A stretch of 64,000 nucleotides of DNA from Longimicrobiales bacterium. GTDB lineage: Bacteria; Gemmatimonadota; Gemmatimonadetes; Longimicrobiales; Gaopeijiaceae. The position numbers and the translations under genes are program-made. A model generated the notes under the pieces. The model searched no databases. It was given only the letters and a program-made list of their open reading frames with translations, and was not told the DNA's origin. Within the stretch, counting starts at the first letter, position 1. Each line of letters starts with the position of its first letter. This document shows, in pieces, positions 2,066 through 43,426 of this stretch. The DNA lies in NCBI GenBank assembly GCA_965238005.1, contig OZ250165.1, positions 1,952,001 through 2,016,000 on the forward strand. The letters run 5' to 3'.

Positions 2066-2129
2066 CTAACGATCCGAAGTGAGATTGCCCGCTGGGCCAG
2101 GCCTGCCCGCCCTGTCCATGGAGATGGCC

Positions 2130-4640
2130 ATGAATGCGATTCGCATTGTCACCCGAGTCGGCTTGAGGACGTGCTCCACTACGTTTATTGCCCTCCTTGT
2201 CCTGTTCGGATGCCGCGGCAACTCTAGTGACGTGGGCATGGGCGAAGTCGTCCTCGCCGAGTACCCCAGCGTGGATGCCAGCTTTCTCTCGGCCCTCGAG
2301 TGGCGGTTCGTGGGGCCGTACCGTGGAGGGCGTGTCGTTGCGGTGGCCGGAGTTCCCGACGACCCCCTCGTCTACTATTTCGGCGCTGCCCACGGCGGAG
2401 TGTGGAAGACCACCGATGCCGGAAGGTATTGGCGGAACGTGTCGGGCGGCTTCTTCAAGTTCCCTTCGGTGGGTGCCCTGGACGTGTCACCCTCCGATCC
2501 CGATGTCATTTTCGCGGGGACGGGTGAGGGGCTTCAACGACAATTCATCTCGCCCGGAGACGGGGTCTACAAATCCACCGACGGAGGAGACACGTGGACC
2601 AACGTGGGCCTTCGGGAGACCCGGCACATCGCCAAGCTCCGTATTCATCCAACCAATCCCGATATCGTGTACGTGGCGGCCATGGGGGACATGTTCGGCC
2701 CAAACCCGGATCGCGGCATCTATCGAACCACGGATGGAGGCGAGACGTGGGAACGCATCCTGTATAAGGGCGAGACTACCGGTGCGGTGGATCTGTCTAT
2801 TGATCCCACGAACCCGAGGGTGATCATCGCATCCCTGAACCACCACGTGACGTACCCGTGGGACGAGGAGAGCGGCGGCCCCACCACCGGCCTTTTCAAG
2901 ACCACAGATGGCGGGGACACCTGGACGGACATCACCCGCAACCCCGGTATGCCAGAGGGGCTGATCGGGAAGATCGGTATATCCATCTCACCGGCGCGCT
3001 CCAACCGGGTGTATGCGTTCATCGAGGCTGACGAAGGCGAAGGCGGGATCTATAGTTCCGATGACGGCGCGTCCACCTGGCAGAGGACGCATCAAGACCC
3101 CGGCGAGATGGAGATCCCCAATTCATACAACCACATCACCGCCGACCCCCAGGATCCCGACGTCGTCTATATCCAGCCCATCACCGGTTTACTGAAGTCC
3201 ACGGACGCGGGCCGGACCTTCAAACGTGTACGCATGGAGAACTGGGACCCTCATGCGTTATGGATCGATCCAAACGACTCTCGCCGAATGATCGAAGGAG
3301 GGGACGGAGGGGCCTCGGTGACGTTGAACGGAGGTGAGTCCTGGTCGAGCCTCGAGAACCAGCCCACCGCAGACCTTCTCAGTCTGGCGGTGGACGACCA
3401 GGAGCCCTACTGGCTCTACGGCTCTCAGAACGACAACAGTCACATCGGGATTCCAAGTCGAACCGACGATCGGTCCATCGGATGGACGCACTACCTTCCC
3501 ATTCCGGCCGGCGAGGGCGGGCAGACGGCGGTGAAGCCCGACGGCAGCGTGGTCTATGCAAATGATAGGTCCAGGATGGTCCGTTTTGACCGGGAAACCG
3601 GGCAGGCTCCGCACATCAGCGTTTGGCCCGAGTGGGTGTTCGGAACGCCCACCAAAGACGTGAAGTACCGTTTCTACTACTCGTTCCCAGTGCTCCTCTC
3701 GCCGCACGATCCTGGCGTTCTCTACACGGCGGCCCAGTTCGTCTTCCGATCCACTGACGAAGGCAGCTCCTGGGACCAGATCAGTTCCGACCTCACGCGG
3801 AACCGCCAGGACGTGATGGGCGAAATATCCGGAGGGCCCATTAGCTCCAATGCGTCCTCGCTCTTTCACGTGAGTCTCATCCGGAGCCTTGCCGAGTCTC
3901 CCCTCCAAGAGGGGGAGCTCTGGGTGGGCACCGACGACAGTACCGTTCAGGTTTCGCGAGATGGTGGCCGCAATTGGCGCGACGTCTCGCCGCCGGATCT
4001 TCCGGAGTGGACCACGATCACGGCCATCGACGTATCTCCCCACCGGCGGGGGACGGTCTACATCTCCGGAGAACGGCACAGAGTGAGCGATCGCACGCCG
4101 TATCTCTACAAGACCACGGACTACGGCAGCACGTGGCAGCGGATCACGAACGGGATTCGGGAAAACGACTACTCGTGGGTCATCCGTGAGGATCCGGTGC
4201 GGCCGGGTCTCCTCTACGCGGGAACAGAAACTGGCGCGTACGTCTCCTTCGACGCCGGGGACTCCTGGCAGTCCCTACAGCGCAACCTGCCGCCGGTGAT
4301 CGTCATGCAGATGCTCGTGAAGGACGACGACCTGGTGGTGGCGACCCATGGGCGGGGCTTTTGGATCATGGATAACATCTCGTCCCTGCGTGGCATCACG
4401 CCCGAAGTCGCCTCGGCCCCGGTGCATCTGTTTGAAGTAGTCCCCGCTCTTCGTCAACTTCGGGGAGGGAGAGGGTCGACACAGACGGGACCTTCGGACG
4501 CAGCGAGGAACCCGCCGAGGGGGGTGATGATCGAATATTTCCTGGCCCAAGCATCCACCGGTGACGTGATGTTCACCATCACGGATGCGGGCGGCGAGAT
4601 CATCCAGCAATTCTCCAGCGGGTCGCAGGAACGCCGTAGC
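2130..4640 (+). pseudogene. VPS10/sortilin-like (BNR-repeat) glycosyl hydrolase lipoprotein, N-terminal 837 codons; C-terminus displaced to 28586-29221 by inversion
   Basis: WRFVGPYRGGRV, repeated KTTDGGxTW BNR motifs, DLVVATHGRGFWI; homology stops at ..QERRS (4640). Confidence 0.9.
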
Positions 4641-4647
4641 TGTACCG

Positions 4648-4957
4648 TTTTCGGAGTAGCCCGCGGCGATCAGAAAGTCGACGTAGCGCTGGCACGCTGG
4701 GTGGAGCTCGGGGCCCAGATCGAGAGACCTGGCCTGGGCGTGCGCCTCGAACCAGTCGAGCTCGACGTCGAGGGCCGAGAGGCCCGCGATCAAGGCGCTC
4801 TGCCCCGGCCTGGGCGTCTTCGCGACCGTCAGGGACGCGAAGACGGCAAACCCTCTCACGAACAGGTAGTCCTGCACGAGCCAGCGGCTGAACGCATCCT
4901 CGGGCAGCGAGCCGTCGCCGACCGCGTTCAGGAACTCCGCGCGTGTACCGAGATCCC
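4648..4957 (-). pseudogene. tenA: TenA/THI-4 family protein, N-terminal half
   Basis: GDGSLPEDAFSRWLVQDYLFV..ELDWFE..ACQRYVDFL; bounded by IS-end fragments; continues at 29242. Confidence 0.85.
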
Positions 4958-4973
4958 GCAAACCGGAACCGGT
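4958..4973 (+). repeat. 16-bp fragment of the IS3 IRR
   Basis: GCAAACCGGAACCGGT identical to 723-738 and 14997-15012. Confidence 0.85.
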
Positions 4974-5008
4974 TTAACTGTTCATGATAGCGTTGAGTCG
5001 ATGGTTAA

Positions 5009-5290
5009 GTGGAGCGGCCACGGCTCAGGCAACGAGGCCGAGGTGAGGGAGGCGAGGTCGAGGTGCCGGCGTACGAAGCGATGAGGAGGCCGGGGCGGCT
5101 GGCGGACCGGATGCTCGAGATCCTGATGGCTGGGGTCAGCACGCGGAAGTACGGCCGGGTGATCCCCGAGATGGCCGACACGGTGGGGGTGAGCAAGTCG
5201 GCGGTGAGCCGAGAGACGATCGAAGCCTCAGAGCGGGTGCTGAAGGAACTGATGGAACGGCGCCTGGACGCGTGGGACCTGCTGGTGATC
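5009..5290 (+). pseudogene. IS256-family transposase fragment
   Basis: ERPRLR..GEVEVPAYE..MLEILMAGVSTRKY..GVSKSAVSR..LMERRLD. Confidence 0.8.
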
Positions 5291-5808
5291 CGGGGCATCG
5301 GAGAGAAGTTCGCGGCGAACCCTGTCGCCTGCAATCGCCGTCTAGGCGCCTTCGGGATTTATTCGGCATCCTGGGTAGGCCGGAGCGTCCTCGTGGCTTA
5401 GAGGGCCGTTATCGTCGCGTCCTTGTCTGGGCGAACGGCAAGCGTGCACATTGGCCTGGCAACGGCCATGGGTTCTTTGTCCCTCCAAGGACAGGAACGA
5501 GATGGATGGAAGTTCAGCAAGAAGGTCGGGTCGGTGAGCGCCGAGGACCTGATCGGCGCGGCGGCGGAGAGAGACGGATCGGCAAGGGACGCCGTATCTG
5601 GAACCGTCGCATCAATGAGGTTCCTGTAGAGGACGACCAGCGTGAGGCGGTTCGCCGTATAGGTTTCGGCCTCCATCCTGCCAGGTACCTGTCAGCCAGA
5701 GCGAACCTGGCACCCCCTCTAGGTAAAGCCGAAGCACGTCTCGGTGTGCCACGCGGCGCTCCCGCAGCCACCCTCCTTCCCAATCAGGACCAAAGCTTCA
5801 TGGATTGA

Positions 5809-5839
5809 CGTTGGAGGGTCCACGGCGAACCCTCCAACC
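5809..5839 (-). terminator. Hairpin downstream of lemA, putative terminator
   Basis: GTTGGAGGGT..ACCCTCCAAC inverted repeat just after the lemA stop. Confidence 0.5.
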
Positions 5840-5851
5840 CGGCTTCTTCAA

Positions 5852-6406
5852 TCACTCAAAACTCACAGTTGGCACGTCTCGCACTTCTTCAGACGTGACT
5901 TCGAAATACTCTCGCGCCTCGGCGCCGGTCGCCTTGGCGGTCAGCACTTGCGGAAATCGCCGAATGAAACCGTTGTAGGTTCGCACAGCGTCATTGTAAT
6001 CCTGCCGCGCCGTTGCAATTCTGTTTTCGGTGCCTTCCAACTGAACTTGCAACTCCATGAAGTTCTGGTTCGAACGCAGTTCCGGGTATGCCTCGGATAT
6101 TACGAGCAGGCGTCCCAGCCCCTGCGTAAGAGACTGATTGGTTTCCGCCATCTGGCCCAGGTCTCCCGATTGGATTGCACCACCCAGGCGGGAACGAGCC
6201 TCGGCGATTGAAGTGAACACTTCCTCTTCTTGATCGGCGAAGCCCCGGACAGTTGCGACGAGATTGGGGATCAGATCAGAACGCCTCTGCAGTTGCACTT
6301 CTATCTGACTCTTGAATGCGTTGATCTCTTCGTCGTAGGTCTGAATGCGGTTGTAGCCGCAACCACTCAACGAGACGAGGGCCAATCCAATTACTACGCG
6401 CTTCAT
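5852..6406 (-). CDS. lemA: LemA family protein
   Basis: LSGCGYN lipobox, QLQRRSDLIPNLV, EAYPELRSNQNF, EGTENRIA. Confidence 0.93.
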   Translation of the reverse strand: MKRVVIGLALVSLSGCGYNRIQTYDEEINAFKSQIEVQLQRRSDLIPNLVATVRGFADQEEEVFTSIAEARSRLGGAIQSGDLGQMAETNQSLTQGLGRLLVISEAYPELRSNQNFMELQVQLEGTENRIATARQDYNDAVRTYNGFIRRFPQVLTAKATGAEAREYFEVTSEEVRDVPTVSFE

Positions 6407-6441
6407 ATAATGATCTCCTTGGTAGAAAACCCCATCGGTCG

Positions 6442-7155
6442 TCATGCCTGGTCTACGTAGTTGGTCAACTTCTGTATTTCATCCACGTAGCGTGCGGCAA
6501 TAGGGTCGTCACTCCGGAGGGCTTTCACCTTGTCTCCCGCAATCTTGTCGACGACCCAACCAAAAGCTCCTACATCGAGGCCCGCGATACTCGCTGCCTG
6601 TTCAACAAGTCTTGCCGGCTTCGCCTCGGGCGTCTGACCTTCGAGACGCACCAGCGCCCTCATCAAAACGAAGAAAGTCGAAGCCGAGTCGATCAACAGT
6701 CGCGTCAAGGCTCTCCCGTTTGGGGCGAAAGCAGCGTGCTGAGCTCGCAGCTGTAGAAGTTTGCCCCGAACCTCCCGCTCCAATTCCTGGCGAAGGTCAT
6801 CCCTGTTAATGACAATCCCCTCGAACGGATCGGTTCCCGCAACGAGTTTGTGTGCTTCCCTCATATCCTCGATTTCGATTGGGAAGACGTCGGTCGATCC
6901 TTCCCATTCCACTCGCTCGAAAATAAGCGGGGCCGCATTTCCTTTCTTGACCCATGCAGCAAGTGATTTCTCGATCGGTCCAATCGCTTCGGTTGACGCG
7001 TCCTCAACCATCACCATGATGTTCACTTCCTGGTGCGCGGGTGCGTAACCGCCACGTATTGCCGTACCGAATAACATCATCGACTTCAGGTTTTCGCCCA
7101 GGTCGGTGGCGATCTGCGCTGCGACTTTTTCTGCCTGCTGTATCTTGTCCGCCAT
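6442..7155 (-). CDS. Nucleotidyltransferase-fold protein typical of lemA-TPM operons
   Basis: SMMLFGT.., STDVFPIEIEDM, LRQELEREVRGKLLQLR. Confidence 0.75.
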   Translation of the reverse strand: MADKIQQAEKVAAQIATDLGENLKSMMLFGTAIRGGYAPAHQEVNIMVMVEDASTEAIGPIEKSLAAWVKKGNAAPLIFERVEWEGSTDVFPIEIEDMREAHKLVAGTDPFEGIVINRDDLRQELEREVRGKLLQLRAQHAAFAPNGRALTRLLIDSASTFFVLMRALVRLEGQTPEAKPARLVEQAASIAGLDVGAFGWVVDKIAGDKVKALRSDDPIAARYVDEIQKLTNYVDQA

Positions 7156-7158
7156 TCT

Positions 7159-7929
7159 CTAAAAGCCCCCTGATGAGCCGCCACCACTGAAGCCACCTCC
7201 GCCTCCGAAACCGCCAAAACCGCCGCCGCCGAAGCCGCCACCGCCGAAGCCGCCACCGCCGTGGTAATGGCCTCCTCTTCCCCCGCTAAGCAACATGCCG
7301 AGCAGGAGCCACCGGCCCGATCCTCGTCCGCCGAATAGGAAGAACACGACAAGTAACAGCAGCCAGGAGTAGCTTACTCCTGTGCGCCCCGACGGCCGTC
7401 CTTGCGGGATCGGTCGAGCGGCCTGGCCCGTCAACGTCACACCGAATTCTTCGGCGTATTCTCGCGCGAGCAGCTGAACACCGACGGCGAGACCCTCGGC
7501 GTAGCTCCCTGATCTCGTCGCGGCTTCCCCAATGGCATCGCGAATCCGCAGGGTTTCAGCGTCCGTTATGAATCCTTCCGCGCCGCGCCCGGTGGATATT
7601 GCGAGATCGGCCGTGCCGTCCCCCGGCCGTTGACCCGGTACCAGCAGCAGAACCACTCCGGCATTGCTCGCCTGCGATCCCGCTCTCCGTTCTGCGCCCA
7701 CGCCCCACTGGCGTCCGATGTCACGAGCGACATCGATCGACGCTCGACCTTCCAGGTCCCGCAGAGTCACCACGGCGATTTCACCGCCTGTTTTCTGTTG
7801 GACCTCGGTTATCAGGGTTGTCATCGCCCCTTCAAGGCGTGAATCAATCAAGCCAGCGAAGTCGTTGACGTAGCCCTGTGGGGCCGGTATCTGCAGCTGA
7901 ACTGCTATGACCAGGACGTTGAGTAGCAT
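7159..7929 (-). CDS. TPM domain (YgcG-like) membrane protein
   Basis: GYVNDFAGLI, GEIAVVT, WGVG, TGRGAEGFITD, TM helix, Gly-rich tail GGGFSGGGSSGGF. Confidence 0.9.
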   Translation of the reverse strand: MLLNVLVIAVQLQIPAPQGYVNDFAGLIDSRLEGAMTTLITEVQQKTGGEIAVVTLRDLEGRASIDVARDIGRQWGVGAERRAGSQASNAGVVLLLVPGQRPGDGTADLAISTGRGAEGFITDAETLRIRDAIGEAATRSGSYAEGLAVGVQLLAREYAEEFGVTLTGQAARPIPQGRPSGRTGVSYSWLLLLVVFFLFGGRGSGRWLLLGMLLSGGRGGHYHGGGGFGGGGFGGGGFGGFGGGGGFSGGGSSGGF

Positions 7930-8067
7930 CCGATAATTATAACCGTCCGTTGAACGCGCATCCTGCAATCCCGGCGTGATGTCGGAATGCAACACACCAC
8001 CTGAGGCCACCAAGTCGACAATACCCTTGTCGAGTCGGCTGATGCGACACCTCAGTCCACGACTTGA

Positions 8068-10273
8068 CTAACTGCCTAGCCATGCCTGCAGAAAGGCCTT
8101 GATCTGGTTCCCCCAAAGCATGCTCAGGAGTGCGACGGTGAGCAGAGCGGCCAGTAGGGAAACCAGGCCCACACGAGTCCAACGAAACGCGCCGTGTCCG
8201 GTCTGGCGTAGAAAGAGGGTGACCAGGTCGCGCCGTTCCTTGCGTACCCCTTCGGGCAAGTGGGGCGTGTGGCTGAAGAGGTAGCCGAGCCGTCGCGTCA
8301 TGTACATGCGGAAATTCACCGCCCAGCCGCACGCCTCCAACAGAGCGCTCATGTCCCGCTTGCGAAGCTTGTTCCAACCCGAAAGTGCACTGAACAGGGC
8401 CACCACCAGCAGCAGGGTCACCAAGACAAGGGCGGCGTTCAGAGGGTTGATCGTGGAAAGTGTGTCGAGCAGGTAGACCAGCGAGGAACCGACGGCTGCG
8501 AAGGCAATGCCGCCGGCCAGCACCAGGTCGCGCATGCCAGAGCCGGAAGGGGGTGCCGCTCCCGCCGACGGCACCTGGGCAGGCTGCTGGAGCGACTCGC
8601 CTTTTTCCATCTTCGTTGTGATCTCGGTGGTGGCCTTTTCCAGGTACCCGGCCCGGGTGCCTGCAAAGGCTTCAAGCTTCTCGGATAATAGCTCTTTGGC
8701 TTTCACAAAAGGCGATTTGATGGCCTCCCACAGGCTGATGGGGTTCTCGACCATATCCACCACTCGTGCGTCCCACTCCTTGCCCTGGAGGTCATAGAAG
8801 ATACCGCGCTTGCCGATTTCGATGGCCCCCTGGCCGCCACCCGTGAGGGCGGCGGCAATCTCGAAACTCCGGCGCTGCTCCTGGGAAACCAGTGATCTCG
8901 GCGTACACCAGGAACATTTTGCTGGCTTGGGCGATCTTCTTGTGCTCGGTGCGGTTTCGGACCTTCATTGTGAAGGCGAGTTCACGGCCGTCAATGATCA
9001 GGTTGCCCAATTCAAACAGGGCACGGCGCCTGGGGTCGTACAGCGCGGAGAAACTCACGAAGTTGTTGGCCAGTTCCAGGAGCCAGCGCTGGTACAGGGT
9101 GAGCTTCTCCAGGGCAGCCACTTGCTTCACCTCATCCTTCACCGCCAGATCCTCCAGCAGGAGCTGGAGAAGTTTTTTCTGAGCCGGACCATACAAATAT
9201 TCTTTCAGCGTGGTCTCACTCAGCTCACCTACGCCATCCGATGGCTTCTCCGCCTGCCACGCACAGTAGGGCTCGAAGATGGCCTTGACCCGCTGCCAGC
9301 CGATCCGCGTGAGAGTTTCGTGGGAGTCCGGCTGGGCACGGGCAAGGACCCGGTTTTGTAATTCGTCCATCTGATCCTGGTAGTACGGATTGACGGGGCC
9401 CTCCAAATTCAGCACGCCTTCAGCATTTGGCGTTTGCAGTGGCGCTTGCGCGAGCTGTCTTTCCGTGGCCCGGAGGTCGGAGCCGTCCAGGTTCTCGAGA
9501 GCTTGTTCACTCAGGCAGAACCGTTCGGCGGTGCGGGCATCGAGCTTGACCAGGTCGCACTGCCAGAAGAACTGATCGATCTTGGCATCGAATTCAGAGG
9601 TGAGCTCCACGGCGGCCGCCGTGTCGTCGCCCCAGGGCAGAATCCCTGCCGCGCCGTCATCTTCGGCGAGTGCCTTCCAGGCCAGATACTTCCTCGCACC
9701 ATCCAGGAATTGGCTCAGGTGACCTTCGTTGATGCCGTCTGCGCCACTTATATCCTTGGTACCGCCCACCTGCTCGAGTACGTCATTCGCCAACTGTGCG
9801 GCAGCCGGATCCGAAACGTGCTGGGGGGGGAGCACGCCGTCGCCGTTGGGGGAGGTCATCCCGTACGTATTTCGAAAGATGCGCACCTGTTCCAGGCCGA
9901 TCTCGTCCAGGTTCTCCACCTGCAGTTGTGCCAGGATATGGATCGCGGCTTCCTTGAGCTGCCGGCCCTCCTCGTGGCTGGTATCCAGGTCCGCGAGCTG
10001 CAGGACGTCTGAGGAAGCCGCCATTCGGTCGCGGTTTGCCATCATACGTAAGATCCATGTCACTGCCGCCCGCAAATGCTCGGCACGGATGGTCCCGCTG
10101 CCGTCCTGATTCAAGTACTCGAGGAACGCAGGATCGCACTGTAGGCTCTCGATCTGCACGCTGGTAGCGGCCCAGCGAGCTGGATGGAGCTGGCGGATGA
10201 AGGCAAGATCCTCCGCGCTCTCGATGCGCAGTTGGTGGATCCCGCCGTATTTTTGGAAGACCATGGGCTTCAT
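8068..10273 (-). pseudogene. Large hypothetical membrane protein, frameshifted near 8880 (ORFs 8792-10282 and 8068-8763 are one gene)
   Basis: WAATS..CDPAFLEYLNQDGSGTIR..NFVSFSALY continues in another frame as IEIGKRGIFYD..ENPISLWEAIKSPF with C-terminal TM helices. Confidence 0.65.
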
Positions 10274-10344
10274 AACGCACATTCTACTCTGTCGCAGGGA
10301 ATGTAAGCCAGCACGAGATCTGAACAGGTCAAAGTTATGGCTCA

Positions 10345-10425
10345 GGATAGGAAGTTGCTTTTCCCTTTCCTAAGTATCCCCTTCGTACTGGAGGCGTCCA
10401 GCCAGTGGGATGAGGGTACCGGTCC
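10345..10425 (-). mobile_element. IS91-type oriIS-like end remnant
   Basis: Minus strand ..GGGAAAAGCAACTTCCTATCC; abuts the truncated amidotransferase. Confidence 0.5.
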
Positions 10426-10427
10426 TG

Positions 10428-10752
10428 TGGCGAAGACCCAGGATCCGTGGTGGAACGGATGCGTGTTCTCGAGCCCGGTGCCTCCGACCGTGGCCCGGCG
10501 GACGTGCGCCACGGCGGTGGTGGCATGCGCCCGTTCGGCGACGCGAGAGAAGTGCTCTCCATAAAAGGCGGGCGAGGCCTGCTTCTCCACCTTGGGAGTG
10601 CCGTTCCGGTAGGTGGCGACGCCCCAGCCGTGGGCGTGCTCCCTTCCCGTGAGGTCTCCCTCCGCCTGAACGATGAGCGCGTTCTGAGCGTGTACCAGTG
10701 TGCACTCGACCTTGGTCTCTTCCGTCGCCCTGAACCCGTATAACCTGCACAT
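10428..10752 (-). pseudogene. Class II glutamine amidotransferase, N-terminal fragment
   Basis: MCRLYG, HAHGWGVA, AHVRRATVG, ENTHPF; truncated after WVFA. Confidence 0.85.
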
Positions 10753-10894
10753 GGATGTCGTCCTATCACTGAGCCACGAGGCATGCTCGAAGCGGCGTTC
10801 CGCGACGATCACGCCGTTGCGCTCAAGCCACCGGACCATCGGATACTCCGAGTTGAACGGCATGTTGACCGCCCGGTAGTGGCGTGTCTCGGAT

Positions 10895-16393: not shown

Positions 16394-16461
16394 CGTGTTT
16401 TGGAGGCTCGGAGCTGGCAGCCTACCCTGGGGGGTAACTCAGGCGGAGACTAGGGGGTAAC

Positions 16462-17739: not shown

Positions 17740-17912
17740 TCTGCTTGAAACCCCCTCAGTGGCACCCTGCCAACTGTCAGCCCTCGCACAGGAGAATTCG
17801 GAAGAACCGGCGTGAATCTGTACGTCTGAGACGCGATCCCCAGGATGCCCATATGGGCTCATCGCTCCTCGGCGTCAATACCTGCGGCTGGGTCGGTTAT
17901 GGCCGGAAGATG

Positions 17913-17928
17913 TGCCTAACTTGCGCCA
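17913..17928 (-). promoter_or_regulatory. Possible sigma-54 promoter for the glycosyltransferase operon
   Basis: TGGCGCAAGTTAGGCA (GG-N10-GC) ~175 bp upstream of the start codon. Confidence 0.3.
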
Positions 17929-18264
17929 GGCCACAAGCATTGCCCGCTCCCATCTGCTTCTTTGGCCCGGCAGCATAGTGGGCATCGAGTTGAGAACTCT
18001 CGCTGGTACTGGCGATTCAGCCAGCCGGTGCCTCGCTGTCGAGGAGAAGTGGTCCTTCGTGCGGGGTGGCACCAATAGCGCACCGTTCGGTTCGGTGTTG
18101 GGGCTGTTGTAGCTGGCTCCGGGACACGAAGCGGACACAGCGATCCTCCCCAAAGGCCCACAACGCCAGCAGCGGGCGAGGCTTCTCAAGGGTCTCGACC
18201 TCTGCCCCCCCGGGGGATTGTGGCCCCCCCCCGAAGAAGAAAACTGTGGGAGGGGGCGCCACCG

Positions 18265-19725: not shown

Positions 19726-20153
19726 GCCATCCCCAACCGGCCCGGCCGCTTCTGCGCCTCAGCCAACTCGGCCCGAAGCTCTTGGATCTGGCGCTCGAGG
19801 TCGCGTTTCTCTACCGCAGCCTTGAAAGCATTCACGAGGTAGCCAATCTCGTGGGCGGTCCTAGCGTCGATTCTCCCACACGCCACCCCGTGTATGGCCC
19901 ATGAGCTCCACGTAACAGCGTCCTGGAGGGTACGGGGTGCCGTCGGCACATCGTCGGGGTCGGCGGTCTTCCTGTCCCGCTTGGCCACCGCCGACGCGAC
20001 GCCCCCGGCCTGTGTCACCCGCAAACGCTCCTCTGCTCTCGACGTATCGTGCATGAGACACCGACCTCCGTCGCCGAGGTTGAGCGTGGATCTGCACGGC
20101 GCTCCGGCTTTCGTCAGGCCACCGGCGTCACCGCATGTAGGCTTATCAGTCAT
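19722..20153 (-). CDS. Putative terminase small subunit-like protein
   Basis: CG..TKAGAPC..GRCLMH motif; ATGA overlap with terL. Confidence 0.6.
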   Translation of the reverse strand: MTDKPTCGDAGGLTKAGAPCRSTLNLGDGGRCLMHDTSRAEERLRVTQAGGVASAVAKRDRKTADPDDVPTAPRTLQDAVTWSSWAIHGVACGRIDARTAHEIGYLVNAFKAAVEKRDLERQIQELRAELAEAQKRPGRLGMA

Positions 20154-20260
20154 GATTGCCGCCCTGAGCCCACGGCTCGACCTGTGTGTTTCAGTGAAGT
20201 CCGCATAGGAGCGCCTCTCGCGCTCTTGGGGGCTTTTGGCGTGCACGGAGCTGGACGTCG

Positions 20261-20426
20261 GTGGAGGCGGCGGGAGGCGAAGCCGCGCGGACTTGGGCGA
20301 AGCCCGAGGACGCATCGCGGGGGCGAGCCGAGGAGCACGAGCGGTGTCGAAGACCCTCCCGCTGACCGACGAGACGATCGAGGATTCGCCGAAGGCGAAC
20401 CGCAGATCACTCCCGCCGCCTCCACT
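20261..20426. repeat. Two oppositely oriented copies of the tmRNA 3' end (att-like)
   Basis: 20261-20276 = 37786-37801 (16 bp, direct); 20409-20426 = reverse complement of 37785-37802 (18 bp). Confidence 0.8.
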
Positions 20427-20870
20427 CATGTCGCAGGATGGTATTGGAAGAGTGTCGCATAACTAAGCGGCTTTTCGATATCGGGGTAATTCCGGAAATG
20501 CTATTCCGACCCCGATCCGCACAGACATCGGCCCGTGGCGCGGGGAGCGCGGCGGGCCGATTGTTTTCTCATCGTTGACAATCAAGCGTGCGCTCAGATA
20601 TTCGCAGTGCTCGAATGGGAAGAACGCATGCGTAGATGGGCGGAGGTGGGTGAGCGGGGGTGGACCCTCAAACCAGAGCGACGAAGGCATGGGGGTGTGC
20701 TCTCAGTCTGGCAGCGACTGATCGAATTCGAGGGCACCGCGCGAAGCGTGGTCGGGAATGGGTTCCGGTTCGGTGGGGTCGAACCCGCCGGTCTGATGGA
20801 ACTCGAAGATGCCCGACCACGCTTCGCAAGAAAGATGCTGTTCTATGATTTGTAACTTCCAACACGAGGC

Positions 20871-21842
20871 ATGCCAGTGACAACCGTACTCGAACTCGAT
20901 GAGATCAAGCGTCTACTCGACGTCCCACAGCTGATCCAGGAAATCGAGATTGGATTTGTTCTCTATTCCGACGGCAAGGTGAACGTCCCGCCGGTTGGAT
21001 TCTTGCACTTTGACGACCCTCCAGGCGACGTTCACATCAAGTACGGCTTCGTATCCGGTGGCGAATACTACGTCTTGAAGATGGCATCCGGATTCTACAA
21101 CAACCCCGAGCTCGACCTGCCGGTCGCCGATGGCGTAATCTTGGTTTTCAGTCAGAAGACCGGAGAGCTCAAGCTGATTCTATTGGACAAATGCTGGCTC
21201 ACCGATATGCGCACCGCTGCCGCGGGGGCGGTCGCAGCGAAGCACCTGGCGCCAAAAACTATCCATCACATCGGAATCGTCGGAACTGGCGTGCAGGCGA
21301 GGATGCAACTCGAAATGCTTCGCACTGTCGTCGACTGCGAGAGTTGCTTCATCTGGGGTAGGGATTCGACCAAAGTGCAAGGCATGCTCGACGATCTTCG
21401 AGCGAGCGAGAGCATTCAGGCTTGGGGATTGGATATCCAAGCGGCGGAGACACTAGATGACCTGGTTTCGCAGTGCAATCTCATCGTCACCGCGACCTCG
21501 GCCAAGAGTCCTTTGATCCGGGCCGATCAAGTGAGAAGGGGTACGCATATCACCGCGATGGGGTCCGACGATCTTGGCAAGCAGGAGCTCGAAGCCGAGC
21601 TCTTGGCGAAGGCGGATCTAGTGGTCGCGGACAGCATTTCACAATGTGGCCAATACGGCGAGTGCCTTCATGCGATTCAAGGAGGACTGATCGACGAAGG
21701 TTCCATTCTGGAATTGGGCCAGGTGATCAAGAACCCCGCGATTGGACGAACCAGCGAGGACCAGATCACGGTTGCGGATCTGACCGGCGTCGCGGTCCAA
21801 GACATTCAAATCGCCAAGATGGTCGACCGCGCTCGTCGGTAA
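20871..21842 (+). CDS. Ornithine cyclodeaminase/mu-crystallin family protein
   Basis: GDVHIKYG, LTDMRTAAAGAVAA, GTGVQA, GTHITAMGSD, DLTGVAVQD. Confidence 0.93.
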   Translation: MPVTTVLELDEIKRLLDVPQLIQEIEIGFVLYSDGKVNVPPVGFLHFDDPPGDVHIKYGFVSGGEYYVLKMASGFYNNPELDLPVADGVILVFSQKTGELKLILLDKCWLTDMRTAAAGAVAAKHLAPKTIHHIGIVGTGVQARMQLEMLRTVVDCESCFIWGRDSTKVQGMLDDLRASESIQAWGLDIQAAETLDDLVSQCNLIVTATSAKSPLIRADQVRRGTHITAMGSDDLGKQELEAELLAKADLVVADSISQCGQYGECLHAIQGGLIDEGSILELGQVIKNPAIGRTSEDQITVADLTGVAVQDIQIAKMVDRARR

Positions 21843-21867
21843 GAACAGCACAAGCGAGGCGACACTC

Positions 21868-22845
21868 ATGATTACTGAAGTTCAGCAGCAGCTTGATATA
21901 CCCCAGTTGGTTCTGGAGGCCAGCAAGAGATGCAAGGACCACCTTTCGCCCACACCTCTCGAGTACTCCATGTATCTCAGCGAGCAGATCGATGGCGAAG
22001 TCTGGCTCAAGCTGGACTCGATGCAGCGAACCTCTTCATTCAAATTTCGTGGTGCGATCAATAAGATCCTCTCGCTCACGGAAGCAGAACTCGACCAGGG
22101 GGTGGTCTCGGCCTCGACAGGAAATTACGCCCTGGCGGTTGCCGAGGCCGTGAGAATCAGAGGACACCGCGCCACCATCTACGTGGCCGAGGACATGGAT
22201 CCATCACGCCTGGAACTGTTGAGGTCCCATGGGCTGGATCTGGTGATACATGGCGCCCTTGCGTGGGATGCGGAGAAGGAGGCCCGGCGCGTTGCGGAAG
22301 AAGACGACAAGATCTACGTGTCGCCCTACAACGATCCCATCGTAGTCGGCGGACAGGGGACGTGCGGGTACGAGATCTCCAGGCAACTTCCCGATCTGGA
22401 TGCGGGCTTCTTCGCTTGCGGAGCGGGGGGATTACTCACCGGATCGGCGGGCTGGCTGAAGTCCCACAACCCCGATGTAGAGGCCTTCGGAGTCTCACCG
22501 GAGAACTCTCCCGTGATGTACGAATCCATGCGAACCAACAAGATGGTCGAGATGGAGACTTACCCGACTCTGGCGGACACCTGCGCCGGCGGCGTGGATC
22601 TGGACAGCATCACTCTGGATCTTTGCCGACGATACGTGGATGAGATTCTGCTGCTCACCGAGACCGAGATCGAGGACTCCATCCGCACGCTGTTCGAGCA
22701 ACATCGTCTGGTGGTGGAGGGTTCAGGGGCGCTGGCCGTCGGGGGTCTCCTCAAGCGAAAAGAGCAATTCAAGGGCAAGAAGGTCGTCGCAGTCGTCTGC
22801 GGACGGAACATCGATCTGGAGGTCTTCAAACGAATCATTCGGTAG
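21868..22845 (+). CDS. PLP-dependent threonine/serine dehydratase family protein
   Basis: TSSFKFRGA, SASTGNY, SPYND..GGQGT, GAGGL, VEGSGA, CGRNID. Confidence 0.93.
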   Translation: MITEVQQQLDIPQLVLEASKRCKDHLSPTPLEYSMYLSEQIDGEVWLKLDSMQRTSSFKFRGAINKILSLTEAELDQGVVSASTGNYALAVAEAVRIRGHRATIYVAEDMDPSRLELLRSHGLDLVIHGALAWDAEKEARRVAEEDDKIYVSPYNDPIVVGGQGTCGYEISRQLPDLDAGFFACGAGGLLTGSAGWLKSHNPDVEAFGVSPENSPVMYESMRTNKMVEMETYPTLADTCAGGVDLDSITLDLCRRYVDEILLLTETEIEDSIRTLFEQHRLVVEGSGALAVGGLLKRKEQFKGKKVVAVVCGRNIDLEVFKRIIR

Positions 22846-23086
22846 GGAGGCTGTGGACGACGAGGCAGTGGTGCATGAATCCATTCCCAAAGCTTCCTCA
22901 GCCAACAAGTCCTTCCGATCTCGACTTGAAGTTCTTTGGCGGCGATTGGGCTAGCTGGACATGACGGTGAGATAGACAGACCGATATTCTCCTTATACTC
23001 TCCCGCTGCGAAGAGGGCTAAAGCGGTCCGAGCGGCTCGGGCGCGCCCCGTCCCTGCCATAATGGATAAAGGAGTATGATGGGAGG

Positions 23087-24454
23087 ATGACGAAAGACGA
23101 CTTAGCTCAAAAACGAACACAATGGGAATTTCTTATCCTCGGTTGCATGTTTATAGGCTACATGGGATTCATTCTCTCTAGGACAGCTCTCCCAGTTGCA
23201 AGCCCGGAAATGTTAAAAGATCCGACGCTCGGACTTGACGAAGCCAGCTACGGGGATATTGCAGCCTGGGGAATGGCGGGAATGATTACGGGAAAACTCC
23301 TTACCGGAGTGATCGCAGATTGGCTCGGTGGACGGAGAGTATTCTTAGTGGCTCTCTCTATCACAGCCCTGCTCACAGTTACCTTTAGCTGGGGCACCTC
23401 TGCTACCATCTTTGCCAGTATAAACTTCCTTTTGCTGTTCGCAATGGCAGCAAGCTGGCCCTCCATGGCAAGTATCATTTCGGTATGGTATCCCTCGACA
23501 AAATATGGAAGAGTGTGGGGAATGCTTTCAGTCAGTTCTCGTCTTGGTGCTTCCTTATCAATGATATTGTTGGGAACGCTGCTCACAGTGTTCTCCTGGC
23601 AAAATGTATTTCGTACTGCTGGAGTCGTGGGTCTTTCCGTAGTAGCATGTATCTCTTTCTATCTAAGAGCGAACCCAAAGGATGTTGGGCTTCCAGCTTT
23701 AGAGGATCAAGTCGCGCCAGAAGGTTCTGATAGACAAGATGAACCAAATACTGAACAGAAGGCACCTCACTTTCTAGACGACAAGAATCCAGCCGAAGCA
23801 CTATGGGCTTTCGCAGGAAGCGGACGTTTCTGGCTAATATGCTCGAGTCTTATGTGTACGACCATATTAATGGACTTTATCCTTTTTCTGCCGCTTTATC
23901 TTACTTCTTTTGAAGGAGTATCGTCTGCTCAGGCCGGTTCTTGGGCCTCCGCATTTCCAATCGGATGTTTGGTTGCCTTGGTTGGGGCAGGATTCATGTA
24001 TGACAGCGTCTCACGAAAGGGAAGAGTCGGTCTCTTGGGTGGACTATTGGGAGCTACCTGCGTTTGCGTTGCAGCACTGTGGAGTTTGAAGGGACTGCCG
24101 ATGATTCCGGATTCTTTCAAATTTCCGCTTGCGATTATAATCCTGTTCTTTTACGGATTCACACTTGCTCCAGCATACTATCTGCCAGCGAGTGTCTTTT
24201 CTAATGAATTTGGTGGAAAACACTGCGCTCTCTTAGTAGGGCTGGTAGATGTTGCTGCCTACTCCGCTTCAATGCTATATCTCATTGCAGGGGGTAGAAT
24301 GGTTATGAATTGGGGTTGGCAGAGTATGATTCAGTTATTCTTGGTGATAGCTGTATTGGCAACCCTGATTACAATCTGGTTCGCCTTCGAAGATTACAGA
24401 CGTTTCGTACCAACCGTCGGGGAAGGTCAGCGTCTAAGTTTCGTTAGCACCTGA
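23087..24454 (+). CDS. MFS transporter (GlpT/UhpC-like)
   Basis: ~12 hydrophobic helices, GKLLTGVIADWLGGRR, WYPSTKYGRVWG. Confidence 0.9.
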   Translation: MTKDDLAQKRTQWEFLILGCMFIGYMGFILSRTALPVASPEMLKDPTLGLDEASYGDIAAWGMAGMITGKLLTGVIADWLGGRRVFLVALSITALLTVTFSWGTSATIFASINFLLLFAMAASWPSMASIISVWYPSTKYGRVWGMLSVSSRLGASLSMILLGTLLTVFSWQNVFRTAGVVGLSVVACISFYLRANPKDVGLPALEDQVAPEGSDRQDEPNTEQKAPHFLDDKNPAEALWAFAGSGRFWLICSSLMCTTILMDFILFLPLYLTSFEGVSSAQAGSWASAFPIGCLVALVGAGFMYDSVSRKGRVGLLGGLLGATCVCVAALWSLKGLPMIPDSFKFPLAIIILFFYGFTLAPAYYLPASVFSNEFGGKHCALLVGLVDVAAYSASMLYLIAGGRMVMNWGWQSMIQLFLVIAVLATLITIWFAFEDYRRFVPTVGEGQRLSFVST

Positions 24455-24525
24455 ACGCGTCCAGGGGAGCCGATGCTTGGCTTCCCACCCCTCATTCGGA
24501 CTTCCCGGTGGGAACCGACGCAAAC

Positions 24526-25284
24526 TCAATGGCCAGCAGTCGAGCCACCATCAATCGGTAACGCGGCACCAGTAACGAAACGTGCCGCGAATGAAGCCAG
24601 ATAGAGGACCGCCTGGCTGATCTCGGCTGGCGTTGCAATGCGCTTCAGCGGTGCATAGTCGATCATCCTCTGCTCTGCGGCGGCTGGGTCGTCTTTCTTG
24701 TCGATATGGTCGCGGCGGATCATGTCGGTATCGACATAACCCGGGCATACGCAATTGACCCGTACGTCCGGCGCTACTTCCAACGCCATGGCCCGGGTCA
24801 TGTTTACGACCCCACCCTTTGAAGCGCAGTATACGGTGATCCCTGGCACCCCTATCAGCCCGGCATCCGAGGCGATGTTGACGATGTTGCCATCGGATTT
24901 GCGCAACGCAGGTAACGCCGCACGACAACAGAAGAATGTGCCTTTCAGATTGACGTCGACGTGAGCGTCCCACATCGCCTCGTCAGAATCTTCAATGGGT
25001 CTACCAGCACCGACACCGGCGCTGTTCACCAGGATGTCGAGGCCGCCGAAGGCGTCGATCGCAGTCTCTACCACTGACTCGCAGCCGGGAACCGTTCCAA
25101 TATCGCCGGGCGCCGCGACCACGTGCTCACCACCGCCCAGTCTATCGATGGCGGCGCTCACGGATTGCTCTGTTCTGCCGTTGAGGGCGACACGAGCGCC
25201 AGCGTCGACAAAGGCTTCTGCAATGGCAAAACCGATACCCCGACTGCTGCCCGTCACCAGGACCCGCTTGTCCGTGAAGTCCAT
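24526..25284 (-). CDS. Short-chain dehydrogenase/reductase
   Basis: TGSSRGIG, LVNSAG, YCASKGG, VRVNCVCPG. Confidence 0.95.
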   Translation of the reverse strand: MDFTDKRVLVTGSSRGIGFAIAEAFVDAGARVALNGRTEQSVSAAIDRLGGGEHVVAAPGDIGTVPGCESVVETAIDAFGGLDILVNSAGVGAGRPIEDSDEAMWDAHVDVNLKGTFFCCRAALPALRKSDGNIVNIASDAGLIGVPGITVYCASKGGVVNMTRAMALEVAPDVRVNCVCPGYVDTDMIRRDHIDKKDDPAAAEQRMIDYAPLKRIATPAEISQAVLYLASFAARFVTGAALPIDGGSTAGH

Positions 25285-25449
25285 GTCGTTCCCTCCGCTT
25301 CTATTGAATGACTCACTTGAACACTTCGCCAGCGCAGATCAGCGAACAGGCGACGGCGCGACCCTGGGCGGCCCCGTCAGCACCCTTCCCACCGCGCGTG
25401 GACCGGAGCGGGCCGCGGACTGGGGGCACCAGCTCAAGATGTACAGGTC

Positions 25450-26414
25450 GTGAGCTTCGCTGCGCCCACGCCGAACTCTACCGCTGTGCGGTCTGGGCTC
25501 ATCCGGGCGATGATGGCCATGATCAATGTGAGACCGACGAAGACTCCTTGCATCTCGACCAGATACCAGCGCCACTGGCTCAGCCCGTAGACAAGGAGGA
25601 CCATAGCGATGCCAACGGCGGCTAGGACCAGCTTGTGCGTGGTCGTCATCGGAGGATGGTCTACCCCGGCCTCTCCATCTCCGCCACTGGAGATCGACAC
25701 GCCTTCGGGCGCGCTCACGTCGGCCACCAGGCTCGCCGCCGGATCCCGCCCCACCTTCTTCGCATATGACCAGACGTGGTGAATGCCAATCGGCAGGAAG
25801 ACGACCATGAGCGCCACGCGGTACCAGAGCCCCGATGCGGGTTGGAGTCCTGCGATGTCCTGGGCGATAAGAACGGTGAAGGGGTTGATGAGGGCAGCGC
25901 CGTAACCAACGCCGTACCCAACCATGATGATCCCCACAGCCGTGATCCTGTCGTATCCAAGGGCGAGAGCCAGGGTGATGAGGACGGGTACGAAGGGAAA
26001 ATACTCTTCGCCGAATCCGATGGTGCTCGACCCAACAGCGAACAGGAGAGTTCCGCCGGCCACCAACCAGAAGGGTCGGTCCCCCCAGCGCCTGAGGAGG
26101 GCTCCCATACCGGCATCCACGGCCCCCGTGGCCCGAAGAACGGCGAATGCACCCCCTATGATGAAGACGAAGAAGATGATCTCGTGTGCTCCGCTGAAAC
26201 CCTTGGGAATGGCTGTCAGGCTGGCCGCAGGCGACAACGCCGGAGCATCCGGGGTGAAGTGGAAGCTGCCGGGCACCACCTGGAGTCGTCCGGCGGCATT
26301 CTCCACCCGCTCGAACGACCCGGCGGGAAGCAGGTATGAGAAGACCTGGGCCAGGATCACCATCCCGAAGAGGAGAACCAGAGTGTGTGGGACCTTGAAT
26401 CTGCCTTTCGTCAC
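25450..26414 (-). pseudogene. YfcC/C4-dicarboxylate anaerobic carrier family transporter, C-terminally truncated
   Basis: KVPHTLVLLF, PAGSFER, FFVFIIGGAF, INPFTV; homology ends at ~320 aa. Confidence 0.8.
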
Positions 26415-26498
26415 AATGGAATCTTTCTTCCCACACTTGCGGCCATCCTTTGACGGAACGGGCACGCAACCGTTCGCAGGGCGCTATGAACCGGAATG

Positions 26499-28511
26499 TC
26501 AGCCCTTCACGTATTTGTCGAACCAGGCGAGAAAGCGCTCGAGCAGGTCCTGGTGATAGATGGGCCGACGGATGCCGTGGTGTGCGTCGGGGTAGACCAC
26601 GAGCAGGGTCTCGCGGCCCAACCGCTTCATCGCCTGGTACATCTGCTCGGAGTTGATGATCGGGACGTTCCAGTCCTTCTCCCCTCCTATCCAGAGCGTT
26701 GGCGTGGTGATGTTCTGGACCTTGTTGAAAGGCGAAACACTCTCCCAGACCTCGCGGCTCTCCCAGGGCAGGCCGAGCTCCGCCTCGTACCAGTCCTGGT
26801 AGACGTCGTGGCCGTAGTTGGTGATCCACAGCCCGTTGCCGGCCCCGGAGACGGCGCCCGCGAAGCGATCCGTGGAGGTGATCACGTAGTTCGTGAGGAT
26901 GCCTCCGTACGACCAGCCGCCAATGCCGAGCCGTTCGGGGTCGGCGTAGCCCAGCTCCACGACGTGGTCGGTGGCGACGAGCACGTCCTCGGCGTCGTGG
27001 GTGCCCCAGGCGCCCCAGTTCGAGAGTGTGAAGTCGAGCCCCCTGCCTCCGGATCCTCGAACGTTCGGCATCACGACCACATAGCCGTTGGCCGCGAAGA
27101 GCTGCACCCGGAAGTTGAAACCATAGTCGTACTGCGCCTCCTGGCCGCCGTGAAGCCAGAGCAGGGTCGGGTAACGGAGATTCGGGTCGAAGGACGGCGG
27201 CTTGTAGACGAAGGCCTGGATCTGAGTTCCGTCAAGGGTGGGGAAGCGCTCCTCCTCCGCGTCCGCCAGCGCGATCGTCTTCAGCAGCTCCTGGTTGACG
27301 TGCGTGAGGCGGCGTAGCCCCGAGGAGGCGGAGGGCTCGGCATCGAGGACGAACAGCTCGGCCGGCAACCGGGGCTCGCTGACGAGGGCGACGACGGCGC
27401 CGTCGGGTGCCACCGTGGCCGCCTCCACCCGGCGTCGTCCGGCGATCGGCCGGCTCAGGCTGCCGCCGTCGACCGACACGGCGGCCAGATGGACCTGGCC
27501 CCAATCCTCGAGCAGGACGTAGACGCTGCCCCCGTCGGGCGCGAAATGCGGTTGGTAGACCTTCCGGTCGAGGGACTCCGTGAGAAGCACGGGCCCGTCC
27601 TCACCGACACGGATGAGCGCTAGTTTCGTCTGCAGGTAGCCCTGGGGGATCTCGGGCCGGGTCGTCGTGATGTAGGCGAGCCGCTCGCCGTCGGGGTGCC
27701 AGACTGGCCCGTCGTCAGACCCGGGGTTAGAGGTGACCCGGACCGGCTTCTGCCTGTCGTGGGGGATGTCGGGCTTCACCAGCCAGATGTCGCTGTTGTA
27801 GTTGGCGTCTGGCTCGTCGGTGCGGTTGCTGGTGAAGGCGATCAGGCTCCCATCCGGAGACCAGGCCGGACCGGAGTCCTCATAGTCCCCGGAGGTGATC
27901 TGCACGGTGGCCTTCGTCTCGACGTCAAAGACATAAAGATGGGCACGCAGACGATTCAGATAACCCACATAGTCTGCCTTGAACTGCAAGCGGTCGACCA
28001 CCCAGGGCCCTGGGCCCTCCTCCTGGCTCTGATCGCGGATCAGGAGCACGAGTCGTTTCCCGTCGGGCGACCACTCGTAGCCCTCGACTCCCTGCTTGAC
28101 ACTGGTGAGCTGAACGCGCTCCCCGCCGCGTAGGTCCAGGGTGAAGACCTGCGAGCCCTGGTCCCCGCTGCTCGCCATGAAGGTCAGGTACTCGCCGTCC
28201 GGGCTCCACCTGGGCCGCCCGGCGGAGCTGCCCTTGGCCGTCATGGGGAGGGCCTCGCCACCGGCGGTCGGGACCATCCATAGCCGCGTTTCGGAGCGGT
28301 CATTCTCGAGGTCTTTGGAAGCGACCGTGTAAGCGACCCAGGCGCCGTCTGGGCTGATGCGCGGGCCGCCCACGCTCTTCAGGGCGAAGTAGTCATCGAC
28401 CTGGAGATGACGGAGAGCGCCGGCATCCTGGGCCAAGGCCTGGGACCCCGCGTTCGCGTCTAGCAGCAGGAACGCGAGCAAAGTGAGCTTGATCAACGAA
28501 CGCGCTCTCAT
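26499..28511 (-). CDS. S9 family peptidase (acylaminoacyl/dipeptidyl peptidase-like)
   Basis: WSPDG repeats, LHGG, GWSYGG nucleophile motif, GEKD, YPDAHHG. Confidence 0.95.
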   Translation of the reverse strand: MRARSLIKLTLLAFLLLDANAGSQALAQDAGALRHLQVDDYFALKSVGGPRISPDGAWVAYTVASKDLENDRSETRLWMVPTAGGEALPMTAKGSSAGRPRWSPDGEYLTFMASSGDQGSQVFTLDLRGGERVQLTSVKQGVEGYEWSPDGKRLVLLIRDQSQEEGPGPWVVDRLQFKADYVGYLNRLRAHLYVFDVETKATVQITSGDYEDSGPAWSPDGSLIAFTSNRTDEPDANYNSDIWLVKPDIPHDRQKPVRVTSNPGSDDGPVWHPDGERLAYITTTRPEIPQGYLQTKLALIRVGEDGPVLLTESLDRKVYQPHFAPDGGSVYVLLEDWGQVHLAAVSVDGGSLSRPIAGRRRVEAATVAPDGAVVALVSEPRLPAELFVLDAEPSASSGLRRLTHVNQELLKTIALADAEEERFPTLDGTQIQAFVYKPPSFDPNLRYPTLLWLHGGQEAQYDYGFNFRVQLFAANGYVVVMPNVRGSGGRGLDFTLSNWGAWGTHDAEDVLVATDHVVELGYADPERLGIGGWSYGGILTNYVITSTDRFAGAVSGAGNGLWITNYGHDVYQDWYEAELGLPWESREVWESVSPFNKVQNITTPTLWIGGEKDWNVPIINSEQMYQAMKRLGRETLLVVYPDAHHGIRRPIYHQDLLERFLAWFDKYVKG

Positions 28512-28560
28512 GGCAACTGGCCTCTCTAGTTAGTGTGACGAGTCACGCCAGCACCTGCGG

Positions 28561-28580
28561 GGCCCTTGAATTGCCTATCC
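28561..28580 (+). mobile_element. oriIS-like IS91 end stub
   Basis: GGCCCTTGAATTGCCTATCC resembles 2045-2065. Confidence 0.4.
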
Positions 28581-28585
28581 CTCCC

Positions 28586-29226
28586 TCAGGGGGACAGCAG
28601 AGGTTGAACCTCTTGCTCAATGACCTGGTTCAACCGGTTCCGTTGGACCTCGAAGCGTTCCGAGAGGTTCTCGAATACCGCGTACATCGATTCCGTGGGT
28701 CTGGCATCGGCCGCGCCGACAGCCCTTGAGAGCGAGCTCAGCTTTTCGGTCAACCCCGGGGGGCTCCACATCATGGGGTGAGCCTGGGACCCCATCCATA
28801 TCGTGAGAATGCCCTCGATCTCCCTCAACTGCTTTAGGATCCCGTCGGCCTCGACCCTAGAATTCTCTGGTAGCTCAGCCTGACGCCCGTCAACCTGGGC
28901 TCGGACTTCTCTGATCCTGATCACGGCGTCGGCCACTTCCGAAAACCGATCCCGGAGGTCAACCATGAGCTCGAACTGGGCCCTGAGATCGGCGTCGCTG
29001 GCCTTTACTCTCGGGTCTTTCCGAATCTCGAAAGGCTGCTCGTAAGCCTGTCCGCCCACAGAGAGTCGGACGATGTATCGTCCGGGAGGCGCAGTCGGCG
29101 ATGCGGGCGGTGAGTAATCGATGCTCAGGAAACCGTCCAATGCTCCAGGGGACGGGGGCATCTGGGTACCCGGATATCGCATGTCCCAGAAGAATCGGCT
29201 CATTCCTGCCCTGGTGGAGGGGCTAC
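28586..29226 (-). pseudogene. C-terminal part of the VPS10-type glycosyl hydrolase that begins at 2130
   Basis: GMSRFFWDMRYP..PPGRYIVRL..KDPR..DLRAQF; joins 4640 in frame. Confidence 0.88.
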
Positions 29227-29244
29227 TTTAGCGCCCCCGGTTTC
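29227..29244 (+). repeat. 18-bp IS3 IRL tip at the right inversion breakpoint
   Basis: TTTAGCGCCCCCGGTTTC identical to 13669-13686. Confidence 0.9.
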
Positions 29245-29484: not shown

Positions 29485-29491
29485 ACCGATC

Positions 29492-30132: not shown

Positions 30133-30198
30133 ACGCTAACTCCATCGCATCGGTGAAATGTCTACGATGGCGCGGCAGCACTGCCCAAAGCTGCACCG

Positions 30199-43423: not shown

Positions 43424-43426
43424 ACC

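Follow-up and report, generated by a model that had tools for sequence, protein, structure and literature searches.

A 24.6-kb inversion bounded by short insertion sequence tips in a Longimicrobiales genome, and how the insertion sequence body may have been lost

How can a chromosomal segment be inverted so that each breakpoint keeps the outermost bases of an insertion sequence (IS) and nothing of its body? The question is raised by a window of 64,000 nucleotides from a Longimicrobiales bacterium (G000:C1:1952001-2016000; genome G000 is one contig of 4.84 Mb, and coordinates without prefix refer to the window). Here a gene for a Sortilin-Vps10/BNR glycosyl-hydrolase-like protein (the hydrolase) and a tenA gene are both split between the two ends of an inverted segment of 24.6 kb. 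Homologous recombination between inverted IS copies inverts the segment between them, and the copies of the target duplication then end up inverted at the breakpoints; in such cases a full IS stands at both breakpoints, unlike here, where there is none. Where no IS stands at the breakpoints, an inversion is commonly ascribed to illegitimate recombination. The present one still displays an IS origin, through tips of 7–18 nt and a 5-bp target duplication. Inversions made by IS are already known.

The inverted segment and its target duplication

The inverted segment spans 4641-29226. At its left joint the 5' part of the hydrolase gene (2079-4640, + strand; PF15902, E = 3e-35; 87–92% nucleotide identity to the homologous loci L238–L245) ends in GTAGC (4636-4640, +). 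At the right joint the 3' part (28586-29221, − strand; 86–92% amino acid identity to the same loci) abuts the second copy of this 5-mer on the − strand, GCTAC on the + strand (29222-29226). When the segment is flipped back and one 5-mer removed, the two parts form a single open frame of 1065 aa from a GTG at 2079, or 1048 aa from an ATG at 2130; full-length homologues are mostly 1010–1110 aa long. Among nine trial joins the frame was restored by dropping 2, 5 or 8 bases, and only the 5-base drop gave an alignment with the orthologue in G015 that is ungapped where the parts meet (L002; 72% nucleotide identity over 2876 columns).

The empty target was sought in the 20 metagenomic relatives displayed. 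L238, L243 and L267 read GAACGCCGTAGC and then CCC, with the 5-mer once, a matched left flank and direct continuation into the 3' half of the gene; L241 and L242 likewise hold one GTAGC only. The un-inverted order of hydrolase, S9 peptidase and YfcC-like gene is found in L242, L244, L245 and L261. In the window, the S9 peptidase gene lies at 26499-28511 (−; PF00326, E = 6e-52) and the YfcC-like antiporter gene at 25434-26465 (−; NF008611, E = 9e-42, under the cut-off of that model). The hydrolase locus is absent from the same-genus genomes G001 and G002. GC skew gives a weak signal, being +0.017 within the segment and −0.011 to −0.05 in five bins on its flanks. Because the hydrolase carries a single GTAGC in relatives, gene order is kept there and an intact paralogue has both halves of tenA side by side, we conclude that 4641-29226 is inverted and that GTAGC is a true target duplication. 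An earlier note on this DNA had proposed the inversion, the inverted 5-bp repeat and the continuous 1048-aa hydrolase followed by the S9 and YfcC genes; all were borne out, and its gene names were correct. Its caveat that a GTAGCCC word in tenA might have contributed by microhomology is not needed, as comparison with the empty target reveals the 5-bp duplication to be exact.

An assembly or amplification chimera could in principle mimic such joints. No read or contig is shown across the breakpoints, and the assembled IS copies differ in homopolymer length. A search limited to the left joint, 4640/4641 (runs X19–X22 against 1500-15600), gave neither a spanning contig nor a loose end among the matches listed and is uninformative; the exact 21-mer of the left flank had no match in JGI metagenomes. 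A chimera would not, however, produce an exact 5-bp duplication, compatible in length with the family, that has IS termini on either side, and neither joint lies within a long repeat. In addition, contigs of X19 and X20 show the odd ends of a neighbouring IS copy (13669-15014) unchanged; these contigs hold 29–30 bases on the IS side, just under a 31-base rule, and come from runs that may include the source sample. We regard a chimera as very improbable.

For the host, the event was probably a neutral loss, since the hydrolase gene is one among many paralogues and the tenA copy a second one. Left of the window, G000:C1:1948845-1950994 holds three short inverted homologies (82–91%) to 20267-25294, an SDR (short-chain dehydrogenase/reductase) gene and its neighbours inside the segment, whose arrangement hints at an older duplication.

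The tips, their donor and the tenA joints

One IS tip stands at each joint. On the right, 29227-29244 (+) equals bases 1–18 of the left inverted repeat (IRL), 18/18 as the earlier note had read it, and its last three bases (TTC, 29242-29244) are common to tenA, a microhomology of 3 nt. On the left, the tip of the right inverted repeat (IRR) at 4641-4650 (−) is joined to tenA by its inner side and consists of seven exact terminal bases followed by TTT (12/14 in register). This tip, also described before, is real and beyond chance (about 4–6e-5 at a fixed place), although only 4641-4647 are exact. No variant IS with an IRR matching 4641-4652 exactly was found elsewhere in the genome or among the IS loci compared. 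The tips retain 22–28 nt of the IS while tenA loses 4 nt.

The donor is an IS3-family element of 1.35 kb with 11 full and 3 partial copies in the genome. Its orfA, with a helix-turn-helix (HTH), and orfB (rve, with D, D and E motifs visible) lie in shifted frames with a slippery site (PF13518, PF01527, PF13683); a 233-aa OrfB fragment best matches NF033516, at 152 bits against a cut-off of 160. Near the orfA/orfB overlap lies an A6G run, presumably the frameshift site. The imperfect inverted repeats (IRs) measure about 26 bp by eye, the IRR ending in CA and the IRL starting with TT or TA, and junction-like sequence with a one-base spacer occurs at two integrated copies (741-749 and 13665-13675). 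The IS had no match in G001 and only fragmentary matches in G002. It resembles IS2-type copy-out-paste-in elements in its orfA HTH, orfB DDE, A6G run, imperfect IRs, one-base spacer and short duplication (PMC3299598). Unlike IS2, it mostly duplicates 4 bp rather than 5, its IRs are shorter than the 41–42 bp of IS2 (PMC3299598), and most of its copies in this genome are ragged or permuted at their ends.

Of 79 loci with this IS in relatives, 68 could be scored and 11 could not. The target duplication was 4 bp in 45 of the scored loci, 3 bp in 3, 5 bp in 3 and 0–2 bp in 17. A 5-bp duplication is allowed but uncommon for the donor family, and the earlier argument from the 5-bp duplications of IS2 does not carry the case. 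The proposed IS3-family origin of the joints nevertheless stands for the hydrolase side, where the terminal bases of the IS sit directly on the duplicated target, as in a paste-in product. Because they do so exactly, on a 5-bp duplication of a target that is single-copy in relatives, the sequence supports an IS3-family transposase as the maker of these joints.

The joints on the tenA side are of another kind: they are inner joints, made by microhomology or error, which are not at IS termini and carry no transposase signature. The 5' part of tenA (4651-4957, −; PF03070; 97% to the paralogue at genome 1544310-1544616) is truncated at its own start too, and the 3' part (29242-29484, +; PF03070) is 93% identical to the paralogue from genome 1544305 onward. 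Intact tenA is present as this paralogue at 1.544 Mb and as a copy in G002, where the halves are adjacent with 4 nt between them. The earlier claim that the inversion split TenA therefore holds in that both halves match the intact gene, but the rejoined gene is not seamless, missing 4 nt relative to the paralogue and carrying 21 nt more. A pseudo-IR at the break was considered and ruled out, with 45% of 5000 random 25-mers scoring as high; at the second tenA site, 5.7% of random 25-mers are as IR-like.

A third naked tip, overlooked before, lies at the other end of the 5' part of tenA. It matches IRR positions 4–19 in 16/16 bases (4958-4973, +), and its inner side is joined to tenA. Beside it, 4974-5008 (+) reproduces exactly 35 bp (genome 1782843-1782877) of an AT-rich gene that we take from its translation to encode formate dehydrogenase. 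The source gene is uninterrupted and 170 kb away; the piece, which resembles a templated patch, has TTAA at both ends and is wedged between the IRR piece and an internal fragment of an IS256-family transposase (5009-5290, +; 88% to 11 genomic copies). The sequence beyond the right joint, 29242-31245, is a second copy (92–97%) of the tenA-tenA-moaA block at G000:C1:1542369-1544616, a locus that shows synteny with G001 and G002; within the window block, the second tenA looks frameshifted.

Histories that could join the tips to tenA

Two reconstructions of the ancestral state are equally valid. If the flip is made outside the tips, these come to lie abutted within tenA. If it is made at their inner edges (4651-29241), the hydrolase gene holds an ordinary IS remnant, ends outward, between direct GTAGC repeats, and tenA lacks 4 nt. 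The abutted junction is seen only when the flip is drawn outside the tips.

The first reconstruction led the earlier note to propose that tenA once held a body-less junction of about 25–30 bp, on which transposase acted in trans. This is formally consistent with the sequence; short templated patches occur here, such as the 35-bp copy, and the 9 of 11 full copies in which the T-run of orfB is unshifted could supply transposase. In IS2, however, the outer 11 bp form the cleavage domain only and transposase binds further in (PMC3299598). For this reason a junction with 7–10 nt of IRR, 7 of them cognate, and 15–18 nt of IRL would be a poor and unlikely substrate: tips this short probably lack the transposase-binding domain and fall short of a cleavage domain plus an inner binding domain, if the borders in this element are drawn by analogy with IS2. 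An isolated abutted junction was not found in 151 family genomes by one exact degenerate pattern, a narrow test, and the patch would itself still need an origin. With the alternative flip equally valid, the proposal is not well supported, and we consider it distinctly improbable; were it true, the two-domain model of IS3 ends would be overturned.

We tentatively favour, with a confidence slightly short of even, a history of two events, a normal IS insertion and then a microhomology-joined loss of the body with inversion. In the first event, which has the support of the sequence, an intact 1.35-kb circle of the IS3-family element would have been pasted into the hydrolase gene in reverse orientation, duplicating GTAGC. 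In the second, the IS body would have been lost while the inner sides of the tips were joined through short microhomology to both sides of one break in tenA, 24.6 kb off. The segment would thereby be flipped, one duplication copy being carried round and so inverted, with one tip left at each breakpoint. A naked junction in tenA would be needed at no stage. We favour this history because the tenA-side joints lie off the IS termini, with a 3-nt microhomology and a 4-nt loss; because the flip at 4651-29241 yields a normal IS remnant with a direct duplication; because the third tip at 4958-4973 is likewise joined to tenA by its inner side; and because the genome holds an intact orthologue of the IS-excision enhancer (IEE), the donor IS is abnormal here and ragged copies occur in IEE-positive genomes, as described below.

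The likeliest agent would be an aborted copy-out reaction. IEE removes copy-out IS through microhomology and requires transposase; slippage accompanies its synthesis, and some of the scars that it leaves extend into the IS (bioRxiv 2023.06.07.543989; PMC9943667). Joining at microhomologies and slippage have been shown for it, deletions of up to >40 kb have been noted (PMC9943667), and a review proposes that a flank-primed copy-out strand switches template at microhomology, with scars that may reach into the IS (bioRxiv 2023.06.07.543989). At the present locus, a strand primed from the IRL flank may have copied 15–18 nt of the IRL and then, at TTC, taken tenA rather than the other flank as its new template, aided by the primase-polymerase/helicase of the host IEE. 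The order at the right joint, namely flank, IRL 1–18, TTC and tenA, fits such a switch if the new template is a distant inverted site. The reciprocal left joint would have kept 7–10 nt of the IRR with a small joining error. The TTC of the right joint falls within the 2–6 nt of microhomology of IEE-type scars; the left joint is ambiguous, with 2–3 unexplained bases.

Integrity of the IS copies and the IEE orthologue

In this genome the donor IS is abnormal at its ends. Both termini are kept in 2 of the 11 full copies here vs 65/68 in relatives, and canonical copies (both termini and a normal duplication, 3–5 bp in the relatives) number 1/11 here vs 51/68. An IRL word stands just past the right end in 4/11 copies here (chance about 0.001 each) and in 1/68 relatives (L060), and in several of the copies here the target duplication, of up to 15 bp, runs into the IS ends. 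A glycosyltransferase gene is interrupted by a full copy (13665-15014, +) that has ACAG before its IRL, lacks the terminal A of the IRR and has a frameshifted orfB. At the start of the window lies the right part of a second copy (1-749, +), whose IRR ends at 741, with G and then IRL bases 1–7 coming after it; the same 7 bases are missing from the left end of this copy. The copy at G000:C1:979606-980935 lacks 11 IRL and about 33 IRR bases; the coding target around it, duplicated over 15 bp, is similar to the IRL tip. Host-wide sloppiness of IS was ruled out by the precise ends of a 45-copy CTAG element, an IS256-like family and a second IS3 family.

The permuted copies bear on a junction-driven inversion in which the IS body was present. 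A circle would have entered tenA by a crossover inside the IRL, so that a full IRR, the spacer and 18 nt of IRL tip formed a junction in the chromosome; the junction would have attacked the hydrolase gene, with 5-bp duplication and inversion, and the IRR-bearing body would later have been excised imprecisely. Such permuted copies are present here, as counted above, and the right joint would need no extra event. In IS30, junctions, one with a truncated copy, attack the same replicon and give inversions with IS ends at the joints, while targeting of IRs gives conversion products, which the permuted copies here resemble (PMC9333248). Unlike here, where 7–18 nt are left and the tenA site is not measurably IR-like, the IS30 bodies stay attached. 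The scheme requires an IR-like target, which the tenA break is not beyond chance, the IRL extensions measured here are 6–7 nt rather than 18, and three events are invoked rather than two. We consider it unlikely, at perhaps one chance among several, although it is the strongest competitor of the two-event history.

The IEE orthologue on which the favoured two-event history draws (L193; G000:C1:19085-21604, −) is intact and shares 45% identity over 772 aa with ECs1305 of E. coli. It combines AEP-TOTE (PF22548, 313 bits) with an SF2 helicase (ResIII, DEAD, Helicase_C) and, aligned to ECs1305, keeps D142, D144, H178, D216 and K451, that is, the DxD, H and D residues and the Walker A lysine that define the family. 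Just upstream lie open reading frames that we take from their translations to be PIN-like and excisionase-like. Its distribution is patchy (8/150 other family genomes; 24/302 in the order; 12/51 in one genus). The present system resembles that of E. coli O157 in the orthologue with its catalytic residues, the microhomology joints, the remnants reaching into the IS and the IS3-family substrate (PMC9943667; bioRxiv 2023.06.07.543989; PMC9397093). The orthologue would also serve another course, in which two full, opposite copies in the hydrolase and tenA genes recombined homologously and both hybrids, which after inversion would be without matching duplications, were then excised imprecisely with a tip left by each. 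Every step has precedent in established knowledge or the IEE papers, and the genome holds 11 near-identical IS copies besides IEE. The course takes five events, however, and both independent excisions would have to retain the hydrolase-side tip and jointly lose only 4 nt of tenA; we hold it to be improbable.

Are ragged IS ends linked to IEE in other genomes? A blind sample consisted of the 25 genomes behind the scored IS loci, chosen regardless of IEE, of which 3 were IEE-positive and 22 IEE-negative. No ragged copy was found among 65 in the IEE-negative genomes, although one copy (L079) has a single terminal substitution with its duplication intact; in the IEE-positive genomes one copy was canonical (L057), one permuted (L060) and one dropped (L103). 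In addition, 15 genomes with IEE were searched on purpose, hence not blindly, and 6 had a copy showing both ends. Ragged full copies were found in G159 (1/1), G121 (1/2) and G249 (1/1; IRR cut by about 17 nt). Apart from the precise copies given below and the dropped case in G260, the remaining purposely searched genomes held fragments or nothing, and most fragment ends seen were precise. L103 (G208/G260) was rejected as an IEE-type ragged end, the same foreign end following the cut in three copies, and Fisher tests that had counted it (p = 0.01, 0.0007 and 0.001) are void. These copies, L220, L231 and L235 in G260, show the same end of a foreign element, presumably IS110-like, after the same position inside a donor-type IRR, suggesting that it targets the IS3 end; G000 holds an 80% relative at 2825364-2825516.

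Several observations weigh against the two-event history and the part of IEE in it. In the blind sample only one of the three IEE-positive copies is ragged (L060). The IEE-positive genome G077 has six of six full copies precise with duplications, and G147 one of one. In the present genome, the second IS3-family element is precise at both ends in 19/19 copies, though the 3-bp duplication is present in 10 and absent in 9. The site chosen in tenA, with no IR-like character beyond chance, is unexplained, and a single genome does not reveal which event came first. The length lost does not approximate one IS unit, whereas in the excision scars of Tn6330 the deleted length is near one unit with a standard deviation of 2.4 bp (bioRxiv 2023.06.07.543989). 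In the IEE papers searched the described products are excisions and adjacent deletions, and neither an IEE-made, body-losing inversion nor microhomology-joined insertions were found. Open-access literature, a search that did not extend to the original IEE and IS911 targeting papers, yielded no tips-only or IEE-linked inversion. The original IEE paper (Kusumoto 2011) may list inversion products.

The link between IEE and ragged ends is suggestive and small, partly non-blind and subject to clear counter-examples. It is possible, though doubtful, that IEE acts beyond excision and deletion, redirecting the copy-out strand to distant microhomologies to give large body-erasing inversions, and integrating circles through microhomology at both ends to give the permuted and ragged copies with overlapping duplications of 1–15 bp seen here and in two other IEE-positive genomes. 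If IEE were the cause, its known output would widen to inversion and microhomology-joined insertion, IS end integrity could be compared with the presence of iee, and the locus would define a substrate for an assay. The locus would then be a natural record of IEE activity outside enterobacteria, and IS-tip scars of 7–18 nt would mark such events in other genomes.

Two lone IRL tips, one of 15 nt at G000:C1:1670041 (+) and one of 13 nt at 1068668 (−), stand behind G or CAG, an arrangement shared with the circle junction, and the latter ends an integrase-like reading frame. They are possible further excision scars but unproven, as 200 family genomes yielded no orthologous DNA and no Pfam domain was seen to be split. 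The IS load of the genome is heavy, with 45 copies of the CTAG-bounded element (1.6 kb), 19 near-identical copies of the second IS3-family element and about 11 of the IS256-like one. Dozens of genomic sites, 43238-43425 and 62049-62086 of the window among them, carry a repeat that measures about 186 bp, has inverted ends and resembles a miniature inverted-repeat transposable element.

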